The notes beneath the pieces were generated by a model. The model saw only the letters and a list, made by a program, of their open reading frames with translations, made no database searches and had not been told where the DNA came from. DNA of 64,000 nt, taken from positions 1,988 through 65,987 of the forward strand of contig DATLQV010000032.1 in NCBI GenBank assembly GCA_035534955.1, given 5' to 3'. Shown in pieces: positions 1 to 19,785 of the stretch; the first letter of the stretch is position 1, and every line of letters begins with the position of its first letter. Position numbers and translations under genes: made by a program. This stretch comes from Gaiellaceae bacterium. GTDB lineage: Bacteria > Actinomycetota > Thermoleophilia > Gaiellales > Gaiellaceae.

Positions 1-797
1 TCGGCGACTACGGCCTGATTGTGATCGACGAGTGCCACCACCTGCCCGCCTTCTCCTTCGAGGCTGCCGTTCGGCATGCCCCCGCCCGCCACTTCCTCGG
101 CCTCACTGCCACCCCCTACCGCCGCGACGGGCTACAGGAAATTGTCACGATGCAGTGCGGACCGATCCGCCATCGGATCGCAAGCAGCGAGAGCCCAGCC
201 GGCGAGATCAGCCTCTCGCTGATTGTGCGCGAGACCGGGCTCGCATTCGCCGATGCCGCTGAACAGCCGATCCACGAAGTCTTCCGTCTGCTCGTCGAAG
301 ACGAACAGCGCACAACGCTCGTCTGCGACGACGTGCGCGCCGCGCTCGCCGGAGGCAGACGCTGCCTCGTGCTCAGCCAATGGAAACAACACTGCCATGC
401 GCTCGCCGAACGGTTACAGGACAGAGGCGTCTCGCCGCTTGTGCTCGAGGGCGGTCTGGGAAAGCGCGCACGCGCTGCCCTGCTCGCCCAGATCGAGAAC
501 ACGCCAGCTGACGAGCCGCTCGTCGTCATCGCCACTGGCCAGTATCTCGGCGAGGGCTTCGATTGCCCGCAACTCGACACCCTCTTCCTCGCCTTCCCCA
601 TCTCCTTCAAGGGCCGCCTCGTCCAGTACACCGGTCGGCTCATGCGAGCGCACGACGGGAAAGCAACCATCCACGTCTACGACTACGCCGACCTCAGAGT
701 GCCGGTACTGCGGGCCATGCACGCGCGACGCCTGACCACCTACAAGACGCTCGGCTTCGCACGCGAGCAGCAAACCCTCCCGGCGGTCGCCGCCTGA
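1..797 (+). CDS. SF2 DEAD/DEAH-box helicase (type III restriction Res-like), C-terminal part; 5' end lies outside the window
   Basis: Frame open from nt 3. 'VIDECHHL' (DExH box), 'GLTATP' (motif III), C-terminal lobe motifs 'ATGQYLGEGFDCP' and 'VQYTGRLMR'. Stop at 797. Confidence 0.85.
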   Translation, partial: GDYGLIVIDECHHLPAFSFEAAVRHAPARHFLGLTATPYRRDGLQEIVTMQCGPIRHRIASSESPAGEISLSLIVRETGLAFADAAEQPIHEVFRLLVEDEQRTTLVCDDVRAALAGGRRCLVLSQWKQHCHALAERLQDRGVSPLVLEGGLGKRARAALLAQIENTPADEPLVVIATGQYLGEGFDCPQLDTLFLAFPISFKGRLVQYTGRLMRAHDGKATIHVYDYADLRVPVLRAMHARRLTTYKTLGFAREQQTLPAVAA

Positions 798-817
798 ACG
801 CTTGCAAGCGCGAGGCA

Positions 818-1201
818 CTACCCCGAGGCCGGTCGCAGCCAGTCTGCGAGCTCACGCTCCGAGATGTTCCCGGCCGCGACACCCTCCATCGTCGTGACCG
901 TCTCGTCCACCGACGGCGGCATCCACTCGACTCCGTTCCGGGCGAGAAACTCGACCATCGCGAGGTAGGCGACGCGCTTGTTCCCATCCGGGAGCGGGTG
1001 GTTTCGAGCGAGTCGCACGCAGAGCACTGCGGCCTTGTCGATCACGTTCGGATATAGCTCGACGCTCTCGAAAGCCGCCGCTGGCGCGTGCAGCGCTGAG
1101 TCCACGAGACCGATGCCCGGCCATCGCGCGATCTCCTCGGCGGGCACGCCGAGGACTGCTTCGGCGATCAGCAGGTAGTCCGCGAGATCGAGGTACTCCA
1201 A
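818..1201 (-). CDS. doc: Fic/Doc family toxin (death-on-curing type)
   Basis: 127 aa with Fic/Doc active-site motif 'HPLPDGNKRVA'. Lies 3 nt downstream of a small RHH-type gene. Confidence 0.9.
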   Translation of the reverse strand: MEYLDLADYLLIAEAVLGVPAEEIARWPGIGLVDSALHAPAAAFESVELYPNVIDKAAVLCVRLARNHPLPDGNKRVAYLAMVEFLARNGVEWMPPSVDETVTTMEGVAAGNISERELADWLRPASG

Positions 1202-1204
1202 ACG

Positions 1205-1423
1205 TCAGCGCGCGAGCCGCTCGAGGATCTCGCGATCACGCTCCATGACGGTGCGAAGACGCGCGCGAAACACCTTGTCCTTCCGCTTGCGCGCGATGTG
1301 CTCCGCGATCGCTTCGCGCACCGCGTCTGAAACGCTAATCCCTTCGGCACGAGCGACGGCCTCAAGCTCATCCGCCTGCCCGGCAGGAAGCCTCAAGGTC
1401 ATGTTCTTGCGATCATTCATCAC
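1205..1423 (-). CDS. Ribbon-helix-helix (CopG/Phd-like) antitoxin partnered with Doc
   Basis: 72 aa. 'MTLRLPAGQADELEAVARAEGISVSDAVREAI' is a typical RHH N-terminus. GGAGG RBS, directly upstream of doc. Confidence 0.75.
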   Translation of the reverse strand: MMNDRKNMTLRLPAGQADELEAVARAEGISVSDAVREAIAEHIARKRKDKVFRARLRTVMERDREILERLAR

Positions 1424-1463: not shown

Positions 1464-1649
1464 ATCCGCCGCGGAAGATGGAGCACTTATGGAGCCCAGC
1501 GGGCGCAATCGGTGGCAACCAGTGGCAAATCGGACACCCCCGAAAACCGCCCAACAAGCCGATCCGCAACTGGTGGCAACCCACGGCAACGGTTCGAAAA
1601 ATCATGGTAAGGAGGGGGTCGACGGTTCGAGTCCGTCAGAGGGCTTCAG
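1464..1649 (+). repeat. Copy A of a ~185-nt repeat ending in a tRNA-like T-arm/acceptor-like segment
   Basis: Aligns over its whole length with 5903..6089. The 5' ~44 nt (2 mismatches) and 3' ~47 nt (one G indel) are near identical. The 3' end is 'GACGGTTCGAGTCCGTC' + 'AGAGGGCTTCA'. Confidence 0.8.
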
Positions 1650-1920
1650 GAAGGTCCCGCCCGCATAGCGCGGCGCTTTTTCTATAGGAAGGCCGCCGAT
1701 CTTCCGCTCCTCGGCGAGGACATGGTTCTCGCGACGCGCTCGACCGAGCAGAGCCCCTCTGACTGCCTTCGGCAACGTCGAGCTGGACCGACCAATTACG
1801 CAACCACTGCGGTGAGACGCCGAGCTCCGGCGCGAGCTGCGGGACAGAACGACCACTGCTCCGGAGCAACCTCACGACCTCCGCGCGGAACTCCAGCGAG
1901 CAGCGCGGGATCCTTGGCAT
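1636..1920 (-). pseudogene. IS3-family transposase OrfA (HTH) remnant; no OrfB/DDE part present
   Basis: 'MPRIPRCSLEFRAEVVRLLRSSGRSVPQLAPELGVSPQWLRNWSVQLDV' matches the IS3 OrfA N-terminus. The rest of the ORF is junk and no catalytic ORF follows. Confidence 0.6.
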
Positions 1921-2073
1921 CAGCGGACATCCTTCCCGACCAAGCGAACTCAGTCAGAAGATGTCCACGGAAGGGGAGGGAACTCCTCTCTCTCTCTTTG
2001 TGCTGAAGAGGCGAGCCCTGCAACCCTTCGGTTGCCGGGCTCGTCTCGAGGCTGTCGTTGGAGTGTTCGCGCT

Positions 2074-3549
2074 TCACGCGGCGTCGACCACCACCGCGGG
2101 CTCGCCCAGCGGCTCGACGGCCGGTGCTTGCGGACGGCTGTTGCTTGCGCGCGAGGCGATCACGCTGGCAGCGACTAGGAAGATGCTGCAGGCGAGGAGC
2201 GCATGGTGGAAGCCGGAGGTGAGTGCGACCGACCGCGTCACATGGGCGTTGATGAGGTGCTGGGTGTGGCTTGCGGCGATCGCGGTGAAGATCGCTAGGC
2301 CGAGTGCGCTTCCGAGTTGGGCGGAGGCTGTGCCGAGTGCAGCGGCGAGGCCGGCCTTGTCGGCCGGGACGCCGGCGTTCGCGGCGGTCTGGACGCCGAC
2401 GAAGATCGCACCGAGTCCGAGCGCCATCACGACCAGGCCGGGCAGGACGTCGGCGATGTAGTTGCCGTGCACCGGGATCTGTGCGAGCCAGAAGACGCCG
2501 GCGGCCCCGATTAGGGCGCCGGCCATGATGATCGGCCGCGCGCCAACGCGAGGCAGCAGCTTGGTCGCGACGCCGGTGGAGATGCCGACGCCGACGGTGA
2601 CCGGGACGTAGGCAGCTCCGGCGGCGATCGGGGAGAAGCCGAGCACGTTCTGCATGTACAGCGTGACGAAGAAGAACATCGAGTAGAAGCCGGCCTGCGC
2701 GATCACTTGCGTAGCGTCGGCGGCGGCGATGCCCTTGATCCGGAAGATCGAGAGCGGGAACAGTGGGTTGCGATGCCGCAACTCGGTGACGACGAACAGG
2801 CCCAACACGGCGACCGCACCTGCAAGCTCGCAGATGGTGCGGGCGCTGCCCCAGCCGACCGTCGGTGCGTTGACGAGCGTGTAGACGACGCCGAGCATGC
2901 CGACGGTGGAGAGGACTGCGCCGATCGCGTCGAAGTCCTTGATCGGCGCCTGCCTTCCGTCGTTGGCGAGCAGACGGAACGCACCTGCGAGAACGAGCGC
3001 GCAGACGGGAAGGTTGACGAAGAACACCCAACGCCAGCCGATGCCCTCGGTGAGCACGCCGCCGGCAAGGACGCCGATGACGGCGCCGAGCGGGATCGTC
3101 GCGCTCCAGAGCCCGATCGCCTTGGTGCGGTCCTTCCCCTCGGCGAACGTCGTCGTCAGGATCGAGAGCGCGGCCGGGGTCATCATCGCCGCCCCGAGGC
3201 CCTGAGCGAGGCGAGCGCCGATCAGCACGCCTTCGCTGCCGGCGAGCCCGCAGGCGAGCGACGAGGCCCCGAACAGCAGCGTGCCGACGACGAATAGGCG
3301 GCGGCGGCCGAGCAGGTCGGCGGCGCGGCCGCCGAGCAGCAGGAAGCCACCGTAGGTGAGCAGGTAGCCGCTTGCGATCCACTGCAGGCTCTGCACCGTG
3401 AAGTGGATGTGCTCGCGGATCGAGGGAAGCGCGATGTTCACGATCGTCGTATCGATCACGTCGAGGAACGCCGCGAGGCAGACCAACGCCAGGATCAGCT
3501 TGCCCTGGCGGGTCGAAAGGGCCGAATTGTCCGTGGCGGTGGTGCTCAT
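2074..3549 (-). CDS. MFS transporter, DHA2 (EmrB/QacA, 14-TMS) drug:H+ antiporter family
   Basis: 'LDVIDTTIVNIALPSI', 'GGRAADLLGRRR' (motif A), many TM segments. ATG at 3549 has GGAGG 7 nt upstream, so it is preferred over the track start at 3606. Confidence 0.9.
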   Translation of the reverse strand: MSTTATDNSALSTRQGKLILALVCLAAFLDVIDTTIVNIALPSIREHIHFTVQSLQWIASGYLLTYGGFLLLGGRAADLLGRRRLFVVGTLLFGASSLACGLAGSEGVLIGARLAQGLGAAMMTPAALSILTTTFAEGKDRTKAIGLWSATIPLGAVIGVLAGGVLTEGIGWRWVFFVNLPVCALVLAGAFRLLANDGRQAPIKDFDAIGAVLSTVGMLGVVYTLVNAPTVGWGSARTICELAGAVAVLGLFVVTELRHRNPLFPLSIFRIKGIAAADATQVIAQAGFYSMFFFVTLYMQNVLGFSPIAAGAAYVPVTVGVGISTGVATKLLPRVGARPIIMAGALIGAAGVFWLAQIPVHGNYIADVLPGLVVMALGLGAIFVGVQTAANAGVPADKAGLAAALGTASAQLGSALGLAIFTAIAASHTQHLINAHVTRSVALTSGFHHALLACSIFLVAASVIASRASNSRPQAPAVEPLGEPAVVVDAA

Positions 3550-3649
3550 CGAAAGACCTCCATCAGGTCGAGAATGTGACGGTTCGTGAAGAGGACGAAC
3601 GGCCACAGCTCTGAATGGACATTTCGGCCTTCGCTCGGGTCGCCGCGGG

Positions 3650-4891
3650 TCAGATCGAGGCTTCGCCGAGCCGTTTGCGGAGGTAGCGGCGCTCGGCGTC
3701 GGTGGGAGCGAGCTCGAGCGCCTGCGCGTACGCGATGCGTGAATCCGCCGTTCGCCCGAGCCGGCGCAGGAGATCGGCGCGCGTAGCGGGGAGCAGGTAG
3801 TAGTCGGCGAGCTCGCCGCCGCGCTCGAGTTCGTCGACGAGGTCGAGTCCTGCCTGAGGCCCGAAGGCCATTGCGACCGCTACGGCCCTGTTCAGACCAA
3901 CCACGGGTGTGGCCGCCAGTTGGTTCAGCCGGTCGTAGAGGAGGACGATCTCGGCCCAGTCGGTCTCGCCAGCGCTTTCGGCTGTGGCGTGGCAGGCGGC
4001 GATCGCGGCCTGGAGCTGGTACGGGCCCGATCGGCGCAACCGCATCGCTCGGTCGAGCAGGGCGCATGCCTCCTCGATTGTTGAGCGGTCCCAAAGGCTA
4101 CGGTCCTGATCCTCGAGCGTGACGATGTCGCCCGCCTGATCGAGGCGGGCCGGCCGCCGTGCATCGTGCAAGAGCAGCAGGCTGAGCAGACCAAGCGCCT
4201 CAGGCTCGTCAGGCATCAGCTCGACAAGCAGGCGCGCGAGCCGGATCGCTTCGAGACAAAGGTTTTGACGAATGAGGTCCGCGCCTGCTGTCGCGCTGTA
4301 GCCCTCGTTGAACAGCGCGTAGAGAACGACGAGCACCGCGCGCAGCCGGTCCGGCAACTGATGATCAGGCGGCACGCGGTAAGGGATGCCGGCGTCTTGA
4401 ATCTTGTGCTTCGTTCGCACCAGCCGCTTGGCCATCGTTTCGGTTGGAATCCTGAACGCGCGCGCAATCTCGACGGTGGTCAGTCCGCACAGCGCTCGCA
4501 GCGTCACGGCAACCTGTCCCTCGATCGGCAGCGCGGGGTGGCAGCAGGTGAAGATCAGGCGCAGGCGGTCATCCTCGATGCCACCTTCGTTGTCTTCGTA
4601 TTCCTCGTTTTCGCTCATCGTCTTGCCGACCTCTTGCAGCTTGTGCTCGCCCACGCGTGTGCGTCGTAGGCGATCGAGAGCTCGGTTGCGCGCAGTCACC
4701 TTCAGCCAGCCGCCAGGGTTGTCGGGAACGCCGTCGCGAGGCCACCGCTCCAGCGCTCGCGTAAACGCATCCTGGGCGCACTCCTCGGCGAGATCCCAGT
4801 TGCCGGTGACGCGGATCAGATGCGCAACCACCCGCCCCCACTCGGTCCGGAAGGCGTCGCTGACCGCCTGCTCGGCGCTTACCCCACCCAA
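3650..4891 (-). CDS. ECF-type sigma-70 factor with long C-terminal extension (the type usually paired with YCII proteins)
   Basis: Region 2 '[18 protein letters not shown]', region 4 HTH '[31 protein letters not shown]', ~200-aa C-terminal helical domain. Start is a TTG overlapping the YCII stop, so it is uncertain. Confidence 0.85.
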
Positions 4892-5223
4892 ACGGGCCTC
4901 ACCTCGACGGTTCCAAACTCGGCAGCAGGATTCCGGGCTGCAATCTCAAGCGCCTCGTCTAGATCGTCGCATTCGAGCACGTAGAAGCCGACGATCTGCT
5001 CGCGCGTCTCCGCAAACGGACCGTCGGCCAAGACGAGCCCCCCACCCCGCTTGCTCACCTTCGTCGCCGTCGACGTCGGCTGCAACCGCTGCAGAAACAC
5101 GAGTGCGCCGCGAGCCTCCATGTCCTCCTGGAACCCCAGGAACGCCTCGTATCGCTCCTGCACCTCTCTCTCGCTTAGTTCCTGGCTCTCGTCTGCACAA
5201 ACAAACAGCGCGTAACGCATCAC
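4879..5223 (-). CDS. YCII-related domain protein
   Basis: 114 aa. '[12 protein letters not shown]...[32 protein letters not shown]' is a typical YciI-like fold signature. Directly upstream of the ECF sigma gene. Confidence 0.85.
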
Positions 5224-5324
5224 ACCCTCCTTGGTCGAATCAATCGTCTCACGCGTCGGCTCGTCGATCGCAAGAGCGGCGGCGCCGGGCCAGCGTTGCC
5301 GGCCCCGCCGCTCTCAGGCCAGCC

Positions 5325-5717
5325 CTAGCTGACAAAGAAGACGACGTGCTCGATCTTGATCTTGCCGTTCTCGTCGAACACGTACATCCGCGCCCCGGGG
5401 GCATCCATCTCCGGCGCGTCAGGGCCGAACTTGACCCTGGCGCTCACCGTCAACAGCGCCTGCCTGTCGTCACCGACAGCCTCGACGACCTCCGTGCTGT
5501 CGGGGACGACCCCGTCGGCGAACTGGATCAGCCCCTGCATGTACGCGTCGATCCCGTTCAGGTCCGTCTTCGGGAAGTTCGGATCCGCCGCGATCACCGT
5601 CACCCAGACGTCGTCGGCGAGCGCCTCACGCGCCGCCTCGTAGTCACGACTACCCCACGCCTCGACGTGAGCCCGCGCTGCAGCAACTGCTGCTGAGTTC
5701 TGCTGAAGGGACATCAC
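5325..5717 (-). CDS. SnoaL-like / NTF2-fold protein
   Basis: 130 aa. 'AARAHVEAWGSRDYEAAREALADDV...' is a typical NTF2-like N-terminus. Confidence 0.7.
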   Translation of the reverse strand: MMSLQQNSAAVAAARAHVEAWGSRDYEAAREALADDVWVTVIAADPNFPKTDLNGIDAYMQGLIQFADGVVPDSTEVVEAVGDDRQALLTVSARVKFGPDAPEMDAPGARMYVFDENGKIKIEHVVFFVS

Positions 5718-5902
5718 AACTCCTCTCGTCGTTGACCTGCACTACTCCCTGGACGAAAGGCACGACACCGAAATGGACATGTCGCCCACCAGCCGAGACT
5801 TCTTCTTCAGCAACGCAGAGGCCAGAATCGACCCTCTATACACCTGAGGCCGCATCGACACGACCTGGGCTCGGAACGTCGGAACCCTTCTCCGCGCCTC
5901 AA

Positions 5903-6089
5903 ATCCGCAACGCATGGATGGAGCACTTATGGAGCCCGGCGGGCGCAACCGGTGGCAACCGGTGCCAAATTGGGACGCGCGCGAAAACGCTCGAACAAGC
6001 CGATCCGCGCCCGGCGGCAGCCGACGGCAACCGTTTCACAGCGCATGGTAAGGAGGGGTCGACGGTTCGAGTCCGTCAGAGGGCTTCAG
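5903..6089 (+). repeat. Copy B of the ~185-nt repeat ending in a tRNA-like T-arm
   Basis: Same orientation and same conserved ends as 1464..1649. The centre is diverged but still alignable. Confidence 0.8.
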
Positions 6090-6120
6090 CGAGGCGCTGC
6101 TCAGCCACCGTTTTCGTTGT

Positions 6121-7530
6121 CTATTCGGTGAGCGCTTCGAATGTGTCAAGCGCCAGATCGTCGACCGATTGGACGTGGCGGGCGCGGACCCGGCCGAGTC
6201 CGAGCGCGGCGAGCGCGCTGCCGATGCCGCCGCCGATCATCAGCGCCCAGACGTGGTGGAAGGTGCCAATGGTCGAGCCGCCCGCGTTGAGGAGCGCGAC
6301 GAGGAGCGCGATTCCGATGACGGCGGCCAATTGGCGAAACATCGAGAAGATTCCGGAGCCGGTCGAGAAGCGGTCACGCGGCAACTCGGCGACGGCGGCC
6401 GACGCGAAGCCGCCGAACGTCAGTCCGACGCCGGCGCCGGTGAGGAGGGTCGCGGGTAGGAACGCCGATGCGTAGTGCGGCGTGGCGGCGACGCGGGTCG
6501 CGAAGAGCAGCGTCCCGAGCGCGAAGAGGAGGCCGCCGGGTGCGGCGACGACGCGCTGGCCGAAGCGATCCGCGAGTCTTCCTGCGATCGGCGAGAAGGT
6601 CGTCGCCATCAACGGCCCGGGTGTCAGCGCGACACCGGCGCGAATCGTCGAGTAATGCCACACACCGGTCAGGAAGAGCGCGTTGGAGAGGAGCAGCGCG
6701 AAGAACGAGAGCGCGAAGATGAACGCGCCAAGGGTCGCGACGGCGAACGAGCGGACGCGGAAGAGCGACAGCTCGATGAGCGGACGGCTCGAGCGCGCAG
6801 AGTGCGAGACGAACGCGGCGCCGAGAACGGCTGCGGCGGCAAACGCGCCGACGATGCGTGCGCTCTCCCAGCCCCACTGACCACCGTCGACGATCGCGAG
6901 CGAGAGCGCGCCGATCGCACCGACGAGCAGTGCGACCGCGAGCGGGCTCGGGAACGGTTGAGCGTGCTCTTCTCGCAGCTCGCGCAGGATCCGCCGCGCG
7001 GGGATGAGCGCGGGCAGGCCGATGAAGAGGTTGACGAAGAAGACTGCGCGCCAGTCGAAGGCCTCGATGAGGACGCCACCGAGCGCCGGCCCGGTCGCCG
7101 CGGCGATACCACCGGTCGCCCCCCAGAGCGCGGTCGCGGTCGCGCGCTGCTCGAGCGGAAACTCGGGGAGCAGGAGACCGAGCGAGGTGGGGACAAGTGC
7201 GGCAGCCCCCGCGGCCTGGACGACGCGCGCGGCGGTCAGCAAACCGGCGGTCGGCGCGAGCCCGCAGGCGACCGACGCGGCGAGGAAGAGGAGGACGCCG
7301 GCGAGGAAGACCCGCTTGCGACCGACGCGGTCGGCGAGGCGGCCGGCGGGAATGAGCAGCGAGGCGAAGACGATGTTGTAGGCGTTGATCACCCACGAGA
7401 GATCGCCGAGGCTTGCGCCCGGAAAGGAGGCGCGGATCGACGGAAAGGCGATGTTCACGATCGTCGCGTCCAGGAAGCTCATGAAGACGGCGACAGAGGT
7501 GACGGCGAGAACGAGCCATTTGCGTTGCAT
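6121..7530 (-). CDS. MFS transporter, DHA2 family
   Basis: 'LDATIVNIAFPSI', 'GRLADRVGRKR', 14-TMS-like profile. ATG at 7530 (alternative GTG at 7542). Confidence 0.9.
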   Translation of the reverse strand: MQRKWLVLAVTSVAVFMSFLDATIVNIAFPSIRASFPGASLGDLSWVINAYNIVFASLLIPAGRLADRVGRKRVFLAGVLLFLAASVACGLAPTAGLLTAARVVQAAGAAALVPTSLGLLLPEFPLEQRATATALWGATGGIAAATGPALGGVLIEAFDWRAVFFVNLFIGLPALIPARRILRELREEHAQPFPSPLAVALLVGAIGALSLAIVDGGQWGWESARIVGAFAAAAVLGAAFVSHSARSSRPLIELSLFRVRSFAVATLGAFIFALSFFALLLSNALFLTGVWHYSTIRAGVALTPGPLMATTFSPIAGRLADRFGQRVVAAPGGLLFALGTLLFATRVAATPHYASAFLPATLLTGAGVGLTFGGFASAAVAELPRDRFSTGSGIFSMFRQLAAVIGIALLVALLNAGGSTIGTFHHVWALMIGGGIGSALAALGLGRVRARHVQSVDDLALDTFEALTE

Positions 7531-7555
7531 GACGAAACCCACCGTACCAGATTAG

Positions 7556-16077: not shown

Positions 16078-16466
16078 CAGGACTGCCACCGCCTCATCGG
16101 CGGTCGCACGCTTGCTCGCGAGCATCTCAGGAGCCCTGGAGTTCTGTATGAGCAAAGCGTCTGGCTGCATCGAGCACCTCCTTGGAGGACAGGTACCCGG
16201 CGACCGAGAGCGGCTGGGCATCGATTGAGCGGAACTCCTGGAGAGCGATGCGTTCGACGACGCTGGGCTGATCAGTCCTTTCGTCGTCGGTGGGGACGAC
16301 AAGAACGAGCTTCGGCGTCCACCGAGCGTCCACGCGCCGGTGAATTCTTCGCCGACGCCTCGCACTGCTGTTGCTGAGGACGTTGGCCCGCCTTCCGGTC
16401 GACGTCGCCGGCAGGCCCGAATGTATGCTATACCTCTATTTAACTGTTTAGTTGATTGGAGGATTG

Positions 16467-19191: not shown

Positions 19192-19308
19192 TGCTCGAGC
19201 CGTGGCGGACGGAATGGTGCCCCCCCTCGCATCGCGTGCGCACTAGTCCACCGGGCGTCCACGGCGTGGCCCTCGGCGCTGATTGGGACGGGAGCGAGCA
19301 TCGAGGAG

Positions 19309-19785
19309 GTGGATCGCGTGCTCGCGTCCGTCGCGGGCGAGGAACTGAAGACACGGACGCTCGAAGGCTTCGAGCGCATGTTCAACGACGGCGATCTCGC
19401 CTCCGTCGACACGACCCTGGCACCCGGTGCGGTCGACCATCAGGAGCCAGCCGGCACCGACTTCGCGTCCCACCTCAAGAACGTCATCTCGACGCTGCGA
19501 ACGGCCTTCCCCGACCTGCATTTCGACGTCCACCAGCTCATCTGCGAAGACGACACGGTCGCCTGCCGTTCGACGATGACCGGCACCCACCAGGGGCCGC
19601 TGCGGATCGGGCCGCTGGCCGGCCTCCCCGTCAATAGCACGCCGATCGACGTTCCACACATGCACTTCTTCCGCTATGACGACGACGGCCGCGTCACCGA
19701 CCTCTGGCACGTCTGGAACACGATCGGTCTCGCCCGTCAGCTCGGCGCCCCCGCGCCCAACCTGAACATCAGCGCCCCCGCATGA
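19309..19785 (+). CDS. Ester cyclase / SnoaL-like polyketide cyclase family protein
   Basis: 'FPDLHFDVHQLICEDDTVACRSTMTGTHQGP...GLPVNSTPIDVPHMHFFRYDDDGRVTDLWHVWN'. Confidence 0.8.
   Translation: MDRVLASVAGEELKTRTLEGFERMFNDGDLASVDTTLAPGAVDHQEPAGTDFASHLKNVISTLRTAFPDLHFDVHQLICEDDTVACRSTMTGTHQGPLRIGPLAGLPVNSTPIDVPHMHFFRYDDDGRVTDLWHVWNTIGLARQLGAPAPNLNISAPA

Follow-up and report, generated by a model that had tools for sequence, protein, structure and literature searches.

Repeated tRNA-like sequences in a Gaiellaceae contig as probable attR-type junctions of elements integrated at tRNA-Thr(GGU)

Integrative elements of the lambda type have an attP site with P and P' arms and a heterobivalent tyrosine integrase, and examples that integrate into tRNA genes are pSAM2 (tRNA-Pro), SLP1 (tRNA-Tyr), pSE101 (tRNA-Thr) and L5 (tRNA-Gly). 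Cis-mobilizable elements (CIMEs), along with tandem accretion, are known from the integration sites of ICESt1 and ICESt3 in Streptococcus thermophilus, and mobilization of CIMEs has been shown there. Integron arrays have attC sites, which are imperfect palindromes that fold as single strands, and the IntI integrase. The tycheposons of Prochlorococcus bring cargo and a tyrosine recombinase into tRNA genes, including tRNA-Thr(ggt); they carry replication modules and adjoin each other with partial tRNA copies between them, and fragmented integrases and scattered partial tRNAs are present in the genomic islands (bioRxiv 10.1101/2020.12.28.424599). Here we describe a repeat that is present in two copies in a 64,000-nucleotide stretch (the window) of contig DATLQV010000032.1 from a Gaiellaceae bacterium (assembly GCA_035534955.1). 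We consider it very probable that each copy is an attR-type junction, consisting of the P arm of an attP site and a tRNA core, of an element that integrated at tRNA-Thr(GGU) via a tyrosine integrase.

The two copies, A (1477-1648) and B (5917-6088), are in direct orientation. The 21-mer at the 5' end of the element and the 32-mer at its 3' end each occur exactly twice in the 64 kb and were not found in any of 100 shuffles. The initial annotation of this DNA, made from the sequence alone, had described two direct copies of one element with near-identical ends and a diverged center, and all of this was borne out: there are two mismatches in the first 44 nt and one G indel in the 3' block (GGAGGGGG vs. 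GGAGGGG), the center is diverged, the arms are 77% identical and the cores are the same apart from the G indel. The annotation had placed the starts of the copies at 1464 and 5903, which must be revised to 1478 and 5918, where the homology shared by the wider family begins with (G/A)TGGAGC. The arm, of about 125 nt, which we named F1, has a TGGAGC-N5-TGGAGC pair followed by two GCAAC triplets with 10-bp spacing; there are six GCAAY units per element, grouped as two triplets with an A-rich spacer between them, and not the three or four GGCAAC-like units counted previously. The features of the two copies are as follows.

1479..1495, + strand: copy A distal pair TGGAGC-N5-TGGAGC with 11-bp spacing, at the left edge of the family-wide homology and nearly invariant in 31 aligned members
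1505..1529, + strand: copy A left triplet GCAAT/GCAAC/GCAAA with 10-bp spacing, read from the sequence and conserved in the family alignment
1566..1590, + strand: copy A right triplet, GCAAC three times with 10-bp spacing in direct orientation, read from the sequence
1603..1645, + strand: copy A core, positions 31-73 of tRNA-Thr(GGU), by identity to tRNA-Thr(ggt) genes called by ARAGORN
1646..1690, + strand: copy A trailer, a weak hairpin and a T5 run (1677-1681), cut off by an IS3 remnant
5919..5935, + strand: copy B distal pair TGGAGC-N5-TGGAGC, from sequence and family alignment
5945..6031, + strand: copy B left triplet at 5945-5969, then a spacer, then the right triplet at 6006-6031, which is partly degenerate (GCGCC, GCAGC, GCAAC), from sequence and family alignment
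6044..6085, + strand: copy B core, positions 31-73 of tRNA-Thr(GGU) with one G of the variable loop missing, by sequence comparison

The T5 run after copy A had also been recognized in the initial annotation. The trailer that contains it resembles the terminator that follows tRNA-Thr cores elsewhere (compare CCCCGCATAGCGGGGCTTTTTT in loci L182 and L297) and was not called in a terminator scan at 1646-1690.

The last 42-43 nt of each copy correspond to positions 31-73 of the tRNA-Thr(GGU) of Thermoleophilia, and span the last base of the 5' anticodon stem, the anticodon loop (ATGGTAA), the variable loop, the T arm, the 3' acceptor strand and the discriminator base. The core is identical to the 3' part of the tRNA-Thr(ggt) called by ARAGORN in loci L001, L002, L004, L009-L012, L039, L041, L058 and L080. 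The tRNA-like form of the 3' end, as first reported, is therefore present, but the sequence is not merely tRNA-like, being identical to this part of a genuine tRNA-Thr(GGU) gene. A functional tRNA or tmRNA gene was ruled out, based on the fact that ARAGORN called no tRNA genes in the 64-kb window and that what precedes position 31 in the copies does not resemble the tRNA.

A scan of one genome per species with the 24-mer GACGGTTCGAGTCCGTCAGAGGGC from this core returned at least 119 loci, and the named carriers among the matches listed were mostly Gaiellales, Solirubrobacterales and Conexibacter (Thermoleophilia). Conexibacter arvalis DSM 23288 (L041) was the one cultured carrier among them, with the tRNA gene as the part that was confirmed. 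Among those matches the 24-mer ends a complete gene (GCCCTCTTAGCTCAGTTGGTAGAGCACCTCCATGGTAAGGAGGGGGTCGACGGTTCGAGTCCGTCAGAGGGCT), called as tRNA-Thr(ggt) by ARAGORN, in 52 of 126 occurrences, and in the other 74 the tRNA half is preceded by non-tRNA sequence belonging to several unrelated arm families of similar length. Every arm family is marked by a tandem repeat of its own, which lies about 165-185 nt before the tRNA end (in families other than F1, two copies of GAGGGAACAC, GGGTAC-N5-GGGTAC, two copies of TTGGGGACA and two copies of GGTGCAC). Unrelated arms of similar length before one and the same tRNA half are what is expected of the attP arms of different elements that use one attB. Arm families other than F1 that precede the same tRNA-Thr half with equidistant repeats number at least eight (e.g., L006, L017, L020, L016, L035, L043, and L098); many of these repeats resemble variations on (G/T)GGNAC, and in the GGACAC family the same repeats are also found downstream of the core (L105, L035, and L032). 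In four soil metagenomes (X1-X4), the word depth of contigs increased three- to six-fold over the tRNA part of both copies (1603-1869 and 5875-6141) and contigs break there, as expected for a sequence that is common to many genomes or elements in the sample.

The F1 arm itself is also widespread, having more than 100 family members in other genomes. In an alignment of 31 of them the homology has a sharp left edge at (G/A)TGGAGC, beyond which the loci have unrelated DNA. A profile of the arm matched only copies A and B in the window, and dozens of places in the loci that were fetched. A second scan, with a pattern for the arm that had no tRNA part, gave more than 119 loci, with several contigs per metagenome-assembled genome (MAG), and 131 distinct arms of full length were among the matches listed. 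A tRNA-Thr core follows 83 of these, in 69 cases at an offset of 140-149 nt. The right GCAAC cluster, of about 28 nt, is in direct orientation in 10 of the 31 aligned members (as counted, the window and eight others) and is the exact reverse complement, GTTGC three times, in the other 21, which argues that a DNA motif has been kept, since an RNA fold would be destroyed by the inversion. Each copy is more similar to an arm in another genome (L192, 83% identity; L175, 79%) than copies A and B are to each other (77%). As each copy is nearer to a foreign arm, and as the proteins of the major facilitator superfamily (MFS) encoded after the two copies are only 34% identical, the copies represent separate acquisitions. 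No match to the F1 arm was found in 50,697 phage records, 72,556 plasmids or IMG/VR, and the tRNA part alone matched one Tsukamurella plasmid. Eleven contigs with an F1 arm or integrase (L025, L027, L030, L066, L076, L134, L179, L282, L300, L311, and L317) are binned in MAGs of other groups, labeled Gemmatimonadaceae, Xanthobacteraceae, Vicinamibacterales, Burkholderiales, Verrucomicrobiia and Dormibacterota. Either mis-binning of short contigs or transfer between phyla may be the reason.

The link to an integrase came from locus L074, where the open reading frame (ORF) abutting the upstream core encodes a 380-aa tyrosine recombinase (Pfam Phage_integrase), whose N-terminus has weak but repeated matches to Arm-DNA-bind_4 (best 22.2 bits vs. 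a cutoff of 22.3). Relatives of this integrase are present in 77 loci, and in nearly all of these the 3' end of the gene lies 10-170 nt from a tRNA-Thr core, either a full gene or a partial copy, with all cores on the same strand. In 16 loci the next core downstream of the integrase, 4-10 kb away, has an F1 arm, and in L162, L179, L182, L196 and L199 the layout is complete: an intact tRNA-Thr gene, the integrase, cargo, and an F1 arm with its core. Based on this layout, the copies in the window are expected to be of the attR type and to have ended an element located to their left. The cores that precede integrases are followed by a P' arm with two to three GCGTCCAC repeats at 10-11-bp spacing, which overlap the C-terminus of the integrase (WTLVDARWTP) in different reading frames, indicating that the constraint is on the DNA and not on the protein. 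We regard the identity of the tRNA, the family-wide layout and the link to the integrase as demonstrated at the level of sequence comparison. The 10-11-bp phased repeats of the arm (the TGGAGC pair and GCAAC triplets) are, by analogy with lambda-type sites, predicted to be sites for the arm-binding domain of the integrase or for accessory proteins.

In the mechanism we propose, each element would enter the tRNA-Thr(GGU) gene by site-specific recombination catalyzed by its tyrosine integrase. The P arm of its attP, of about 125 nt, would be fused to a carried 43-nt 3' part of the tRNA, so that the tRNA gene would be intact after insertion; attL would then be made up of the restored tRNA with the integrase-side arm behind it, and attR of the P arm with the displaced 3' part of the tRNA behind it. 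The crossover is placed in or beside the anticodon loop because that is where the identity with the tRNA begins. Successive insertions, whether at this tRNA gene or at an earlier partial copy, would push older elements downstream and produce a row of partial tRNA copies in one orientation, of which the window has two, and an intact tRNA-Thr gene would be expected to the left of the window. By this scheme copy A would terminate an element with a primase-helicase-like gene and a Doc/ribbon-helix-helix (RHH) pair, and not the 4.3-kb cassette that follows it. Copy B would terminate the 4.3-kb interval, which may be either a remnant, with the IS3 remnant at the place where the integrase is expected, or a cassette without an integrase.

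Several observations weigh against this assignment of the copies. Neither an intact tRNA-Thr gene nor an integrase of the associated clade was found in the 64-kb window, and the contigs that extend it to the left, which do not reach the start of the array, stop approximately 2.4 kb further on. Among the matches listed, 48 of the 131 arms have no intact tRNA half, since unrelated DNA truncates them or they are rearranged, and in at least 16 of these 48 the core is a variant with an additional CCTCC-loop-GGAGG hairpin, a different conserved tail and no T arm. The TGGAGC and GGCAAC repeats of F1 share no 6-mer with the GCGTCCAC repeats of the P' arm, so that the simple model of the same arm-type site on both arms does not hold, by sequence, for the integrase-bearing elements; in a comparison made post hoc, GGCAACC and GTCCACC agree at five of seven positions and have the same phasing. 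The subclades of integrase correlate only partially with the arm families, which could be due to reshuffling of the arrays via recombination between cores. The small ORFs upstream of the integrases include no conserved excisionase-like or other accessory gene, and the loci that are whole contigs have no terminal overlaps that would mark circular forms. Lastly, no excised circle, empty site or joint of A and B was found in the four soil metagenomes, where contigs cannot show rare forms.

The 16 loci with variant cores (L282, L292, L340, L341, L348, L285, L309, L342, L351, L390, L288, L293, L325, L371, L305, and L344) also have tRNA-Thr cores in four cases and a distant integrase in one, and other F1 arms were also met in arrays there. 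In the variant arms, in the stretch at about 120-230 nt after the arm start, CATGGTAAG is kept and is followed by an insert of 35-60 nt that ends in the CCTCC-loop-GGAGG hairpin, the loops of which vary. The T arm is absent after GGGGGTC, most then have a conserved tail (GGCTCCGCAA...), and about half have a AAGTCCTG...CAGGACTT hairpin. In L340 the variant arm is followed by the distant integrase (37% identity). No Rfam match was found for the variant junctions.

Three explanations had been offered for the repeat at the outset, of which an att-like duplication from integration into a tRNA-like locus proved right in kind, although the target is a genuine tRNA-Thr(GGU) gene, the 3' 43 nt of which the repeat carries. 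The copies are also not attL and attR bracketing a single element, since both appear to be of the attR type and to mark two successive elements in a tandem array. We consider it highly implausible, by comparison, that the repeat is a structured small RNA, or an RNA gene of tRNA-like form, some 180 nt long. The helix of the T arm is well kept across the family (99% paired, with compensatory changes in two pairs), but this covariation mirrors that of the host tRNA gene, from which it would have been inherited. The pairing noted initially between GGAGCCC near the 5' end and GGGCTTC at the 3' end is present in copies A and B, and five of its seven pairs form in 29-31 of 31 sequences, but it is not maintained across the family, as the other two pairs are broken in 12 and 18 of the 31 and the only compensatory change is in one sequence at one terminal pair. 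The folds of the two copies are no better than those of shuffles (minimum free energy z-scores of +0.88 and +0.48), the consensus fold of the 31 members by RNAalifold had -15.6 kcal/mol and a covariation term of -0.09, and the arm has no covariation. ARAGORN called no genes, and the search of Rfam returned nothing at gathering score and a chance-level match to archaeal RNase P (E 0.84). An RNA is also at odds with the inversion of the right GCAAC cluster in 21 of 31 members, and no promoter-like site or terminator was called in the element. In a soil metatranscriptome a contig covered the RHH gene (1178-1425) and nothing covered the element, which is weak evidence because contigs drop rare RNAs.

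A tRNA-derived repeat resembling short interspersed nuclear elements or miniature inverted-repeat transposable elements, spreading by itself to many loci, is scarcely less improbable. It would account for the presence of the arm in more than 119 loci, with several contigs per MAG, and for the 48 arms without an intact tRNA half, but not for the 83 of 131 arms (again among the matches listed) that stand at a fixed offset and orientation before a tRNA-Thr core. The core-less arms are truncated or rearranged, and the ones inspected belong to arrays that also contain tRNA-Thr cores, other F1 arms or an integrase. The arms showed neither terminal inverted repeats nor target-site duplications, although the fragmentation of the MAGs limits this test of dispersal; unrelated cargo bounds the arms on their left only, and the arm has no phage, plasmid or IMG/VR match. 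Equally hard to credit as the RNA gene is a local segmental duplication of the arm, core and following MFS gene. While an MFS gene on the minus strand does follow both copies, and short stretches align at 72-75%, the proteins are only 34% identical compared with 77% identity for the arms and identical cores, and nearer relatives of the arms are present elsewhere (L192 and L175, as above). The family, with its more than 100 members in other genomes, is thus not confined to two copies inside a simple duplication. We conclude that the feature is real and is of a known kind, very probably a tRNA-integration junction, in an uncharacterized lineage of soil Actinomycetota.

To place the 4.3-kb interval, we compared 88 distinct core-to-core intervals from the fetched loci, which are 8-21 kb in length and mostly from fragmented MAGs. 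An integrase is present in 29 of them (median 5.2 kb), integrase fragments in 8, and neither in 51 (median 2.8 kb), and the interval of the window, of 4.3-4.4 kb, falls in this last group. The GTCCAC repeat pair of the integrase P' arm is absent from 50 of the 51 integrase-less intervals. In many of these, a tRNA trailer comes first, then a terminator hairpin, then a promoter-like TTGCAC-N17-TAGGTAT, and after it a second TGGAGC-N5-TGGAGC pair, which is 70-75 nt downstream of the tRNA end in 39 distinct cores. TGGAGC pairs consequently flank the anticodon loop, near -120 and +115 nt, and stand at both edges of a conserved junction of about 320 bp. By analogy, this two-sided motif may be likened to the outermost arm sites that delimit a lambda-type attP, and it is possible that a transcript starts at the downstream pair. 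The module at +40 to +125 nt after the tRNA-Thr end (L001, L009, L010, L011, L047, L054 and 33 other cores) comprises the terminator, TTGCAC-N17-TAGGTAT, the TGGAGC pair and TTCAGGTCGAAAACGC. The cargo of the integrase-less cassettes has no common conserved protein except an IS66-like transposase in three loci.

These intervals permit a stronger claim that is compatible with the assignment of the copies as attR-type junctions, namely that they are not products of decay but cargo cassettes whose only mobile part is the junction of about 320 bp (F1 arm, tRNA half, terminator, and second TGGAGC pair), an attP-like site. We advance this tentatively and hold it to be rather unlikely. It is similarly doubtful that in soil Thermoleophilia such cassettes are taken up and set free in trans at tRNA-Thr(GGU), in an integron-like manner, by arm-binding tyrosine integrases of one clade that the array encodes. 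The lack of an integrase match in 51 of 88 intervals and of the GTCCAC pair in 50 of those 51, the conserved module after 39 cores, and well-kept junctions with sharp edges beside unrelated cargo, which shares no protein but the IS66-like transposase, all agree with trans mobilization. However, the integrase fragments in 8 intervals and the relics of P' arm and integrase 3' end in the window (described below) indicate that decay does occur, and the window's own cassette has an IS3 remnant at the expected place of an integrase or P' arm. Furthermore, no excised cassette circle or presence/absence polymorphism was seen in the whole-contig loci or the four soil metagenomes, and the loci are short and mostly from fragmented MAGs. 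Quick decay of integrase-bearing elements is an alternative origin of these intervals that the integrase fragments and the IS3 remnant support.

The genes and relics around the two copies are listed below.

21..1423: right end of the preceding element, comprising a helicase fragment (21-797, + strand), Doc/Fic toxin (818-1201, - strand) and RHH antitoxin (1205-1423, - strand) (Pfam Helicase_C/ResIII, Fic, and RHH_1)
1700..1920, - strand: remnant of an IS3-family OrfA (HTH_Tnp_1; Pfam PF01527, E 3.8e-7, ORF 1636-1920)
2074..3606, - strand: MFS transporter (Pfam)
3650..4891, - strand: extracytoplasmic function (ECF) sigma factor with DUF6596 (Pfam)
4879..5223, - strand: YCII protein (Pfam)
5325..5717, - strand: SnoaL-like protein (Pfam)
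6086..6122, + strand: beginning of an integrase-type P' arm immediately behind copy B, with 95% identity between 6097-6117 and positions 14-34 downstream of the L191 core
16267..16406, + strand: remains of a P' arm and integrase 3' end that include the pair GTCCACCGAGCGTCCAC (16317-16333) and have 83-94% identity to positions 15-157 after the tRNA-Thr of L182, L196 and L199
19246..19342, + strand: further remains of a P' arm and integrase 3' end, the minus strand of which encodes ...LARDGREHAIHLLDA...VD.RW (tblastn match)

The Pfam matches between the copies (the IS3 OrfA helix-turn-helix remnant, MFS, ECF sigma factor with DUF6596, YCII, and SnoaL) agree with the gene content assigned initially. 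The interval 1646-6043, of about 4.3-4.4 kb, is flanked by two cores and has no integrase by Pfam or tblastn (no match to any of three integrases of the associated clade), and in this respect it qualifies as a candidate cis-mobilizable element. A DHA2-type MFS gene on the minus strand follows each copy (2074-3606 and 6121-7542), and an MFS gene is also situated directly after the core in L057, so it is possibly a recurrent cargo.

With respect to the preceding element, the full helicase, on contig L121 (720-3056), has 778 aa and AEP-TOTE (primase-like), DEAD and ResIII domains, and the best match to the Doc toxin among GTDB representatives is 89%. A block of RHH, Doc and helicase genes beside an F1 arm and core is also present in L208, in which no integrase or tRNA was found within 10 kb. 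From these sequences, the helicase and the Doc/RHH pair may be a replication and maintenance module of the preceding element.

Downstream of copy B, the P' arm is broken off at the end of the MFS gene at 6121-7542 (- strand). The relic at 19246-19342 has a GTCCAC pair at 19246-19262 and 98% identity over 42 nt to P' positions 121-162. Both this relic and that at 16267-16406 have the same orientation as copies A and B and no adjoining tRNA core; between them are genes for an ArsR-like regulator and an MMPL transporter. Based on the P' and integrase relics at 6097-6117, 16267-16406 and 19246-19342, the window from base 1 to about 19.3 kb looks, from its sequence, like a worn array of several insertions, and the island seems to reach at least 19.3 kb. 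A candidate in which copy A was followed by the start of an integrase-type P' arm that was completed at 16267 was dropped, as it rested on about 14 nt and was not significant.

In relation to the described systems, the F1 elements are most like the lambda-type elements that use tRNA genes. Their direct repeat is the 3' part of the tRNA from the anticodon loop to the end, the integrase gene ends beside the tRNA and encodes an N-terminus that resembles an arm-binding domain, and there is a long non-coding arm with phased repeats away from the integrase along with three adjacent repeats on the integrase side. They differ in that the arm repeats are unlike the integrase-side repeats, no excisionase gene was found upstream of the integrases, and the elements are small (4-10 kb), with an integrase and a few unrelated cargo genes and no conserved accessory gene found. 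Similar to CIMEs, there are att-flanked stretches without an integrase of their own in tandem with integrase-bearing elements, and the 4.3-kb interval of the window fits this description. The target of ICESt1 and ICESt3, however, is not a tRNA, and CIMEs number few per site, whereas at least four cores are present here within 20 kb. The resemblance to tycheposons, which rests on layout, includes the tRNA-Thr(ggt) target, tandem elements split by partial tRNA copies, and fragmented integrases. The F1 elements belong to another phylum, no replication module was evident in the few of them looked at in this respect, and the conserved arm of about 125 nt with TGGAGC and GCAAC repeats is specific to the F1 family.

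Like integron arrays, the F1 arrays are rows of small, promoter-poor cassettes with unrelated cargo, a conserved end site and one integrase family. Unlike integrons, they have no attC hairpins, the site being a tRNA half with arms that is double-stranded and lambda-like, and the integrase, as compared by Pfam, is probably not of the IntI type. An integron cassette array proper is not supported, as the junctions fold no better than shuffles and the only known integrase family matched is Pfam Phage_integrase, along with weak matches to an arm-binding domain.

Explained as an ordinary integration junction, the puzzling tRNA-like repeat need not be mis-annotated, either as an RNA gene or as small hypothetical peptides such as can be read on both strands, and the part of the window up to about 19.3 kb, starting at base 1, can be seen as a composite island at a tRNA-Thr hotspot. 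The explanation is also relevant to the spread of MFS pumps, ECF sigma factors and toxin-antitoxin pairs among uncultured Actinomycetota of soil. The family combines a compact integrase with an att site of about 170-320 bp and offers a natural series of arm variants for the specificity of arm sites. If cassettes were indeed mobilized in trans, they would represent a second, lambda-type route to cassette arrays.

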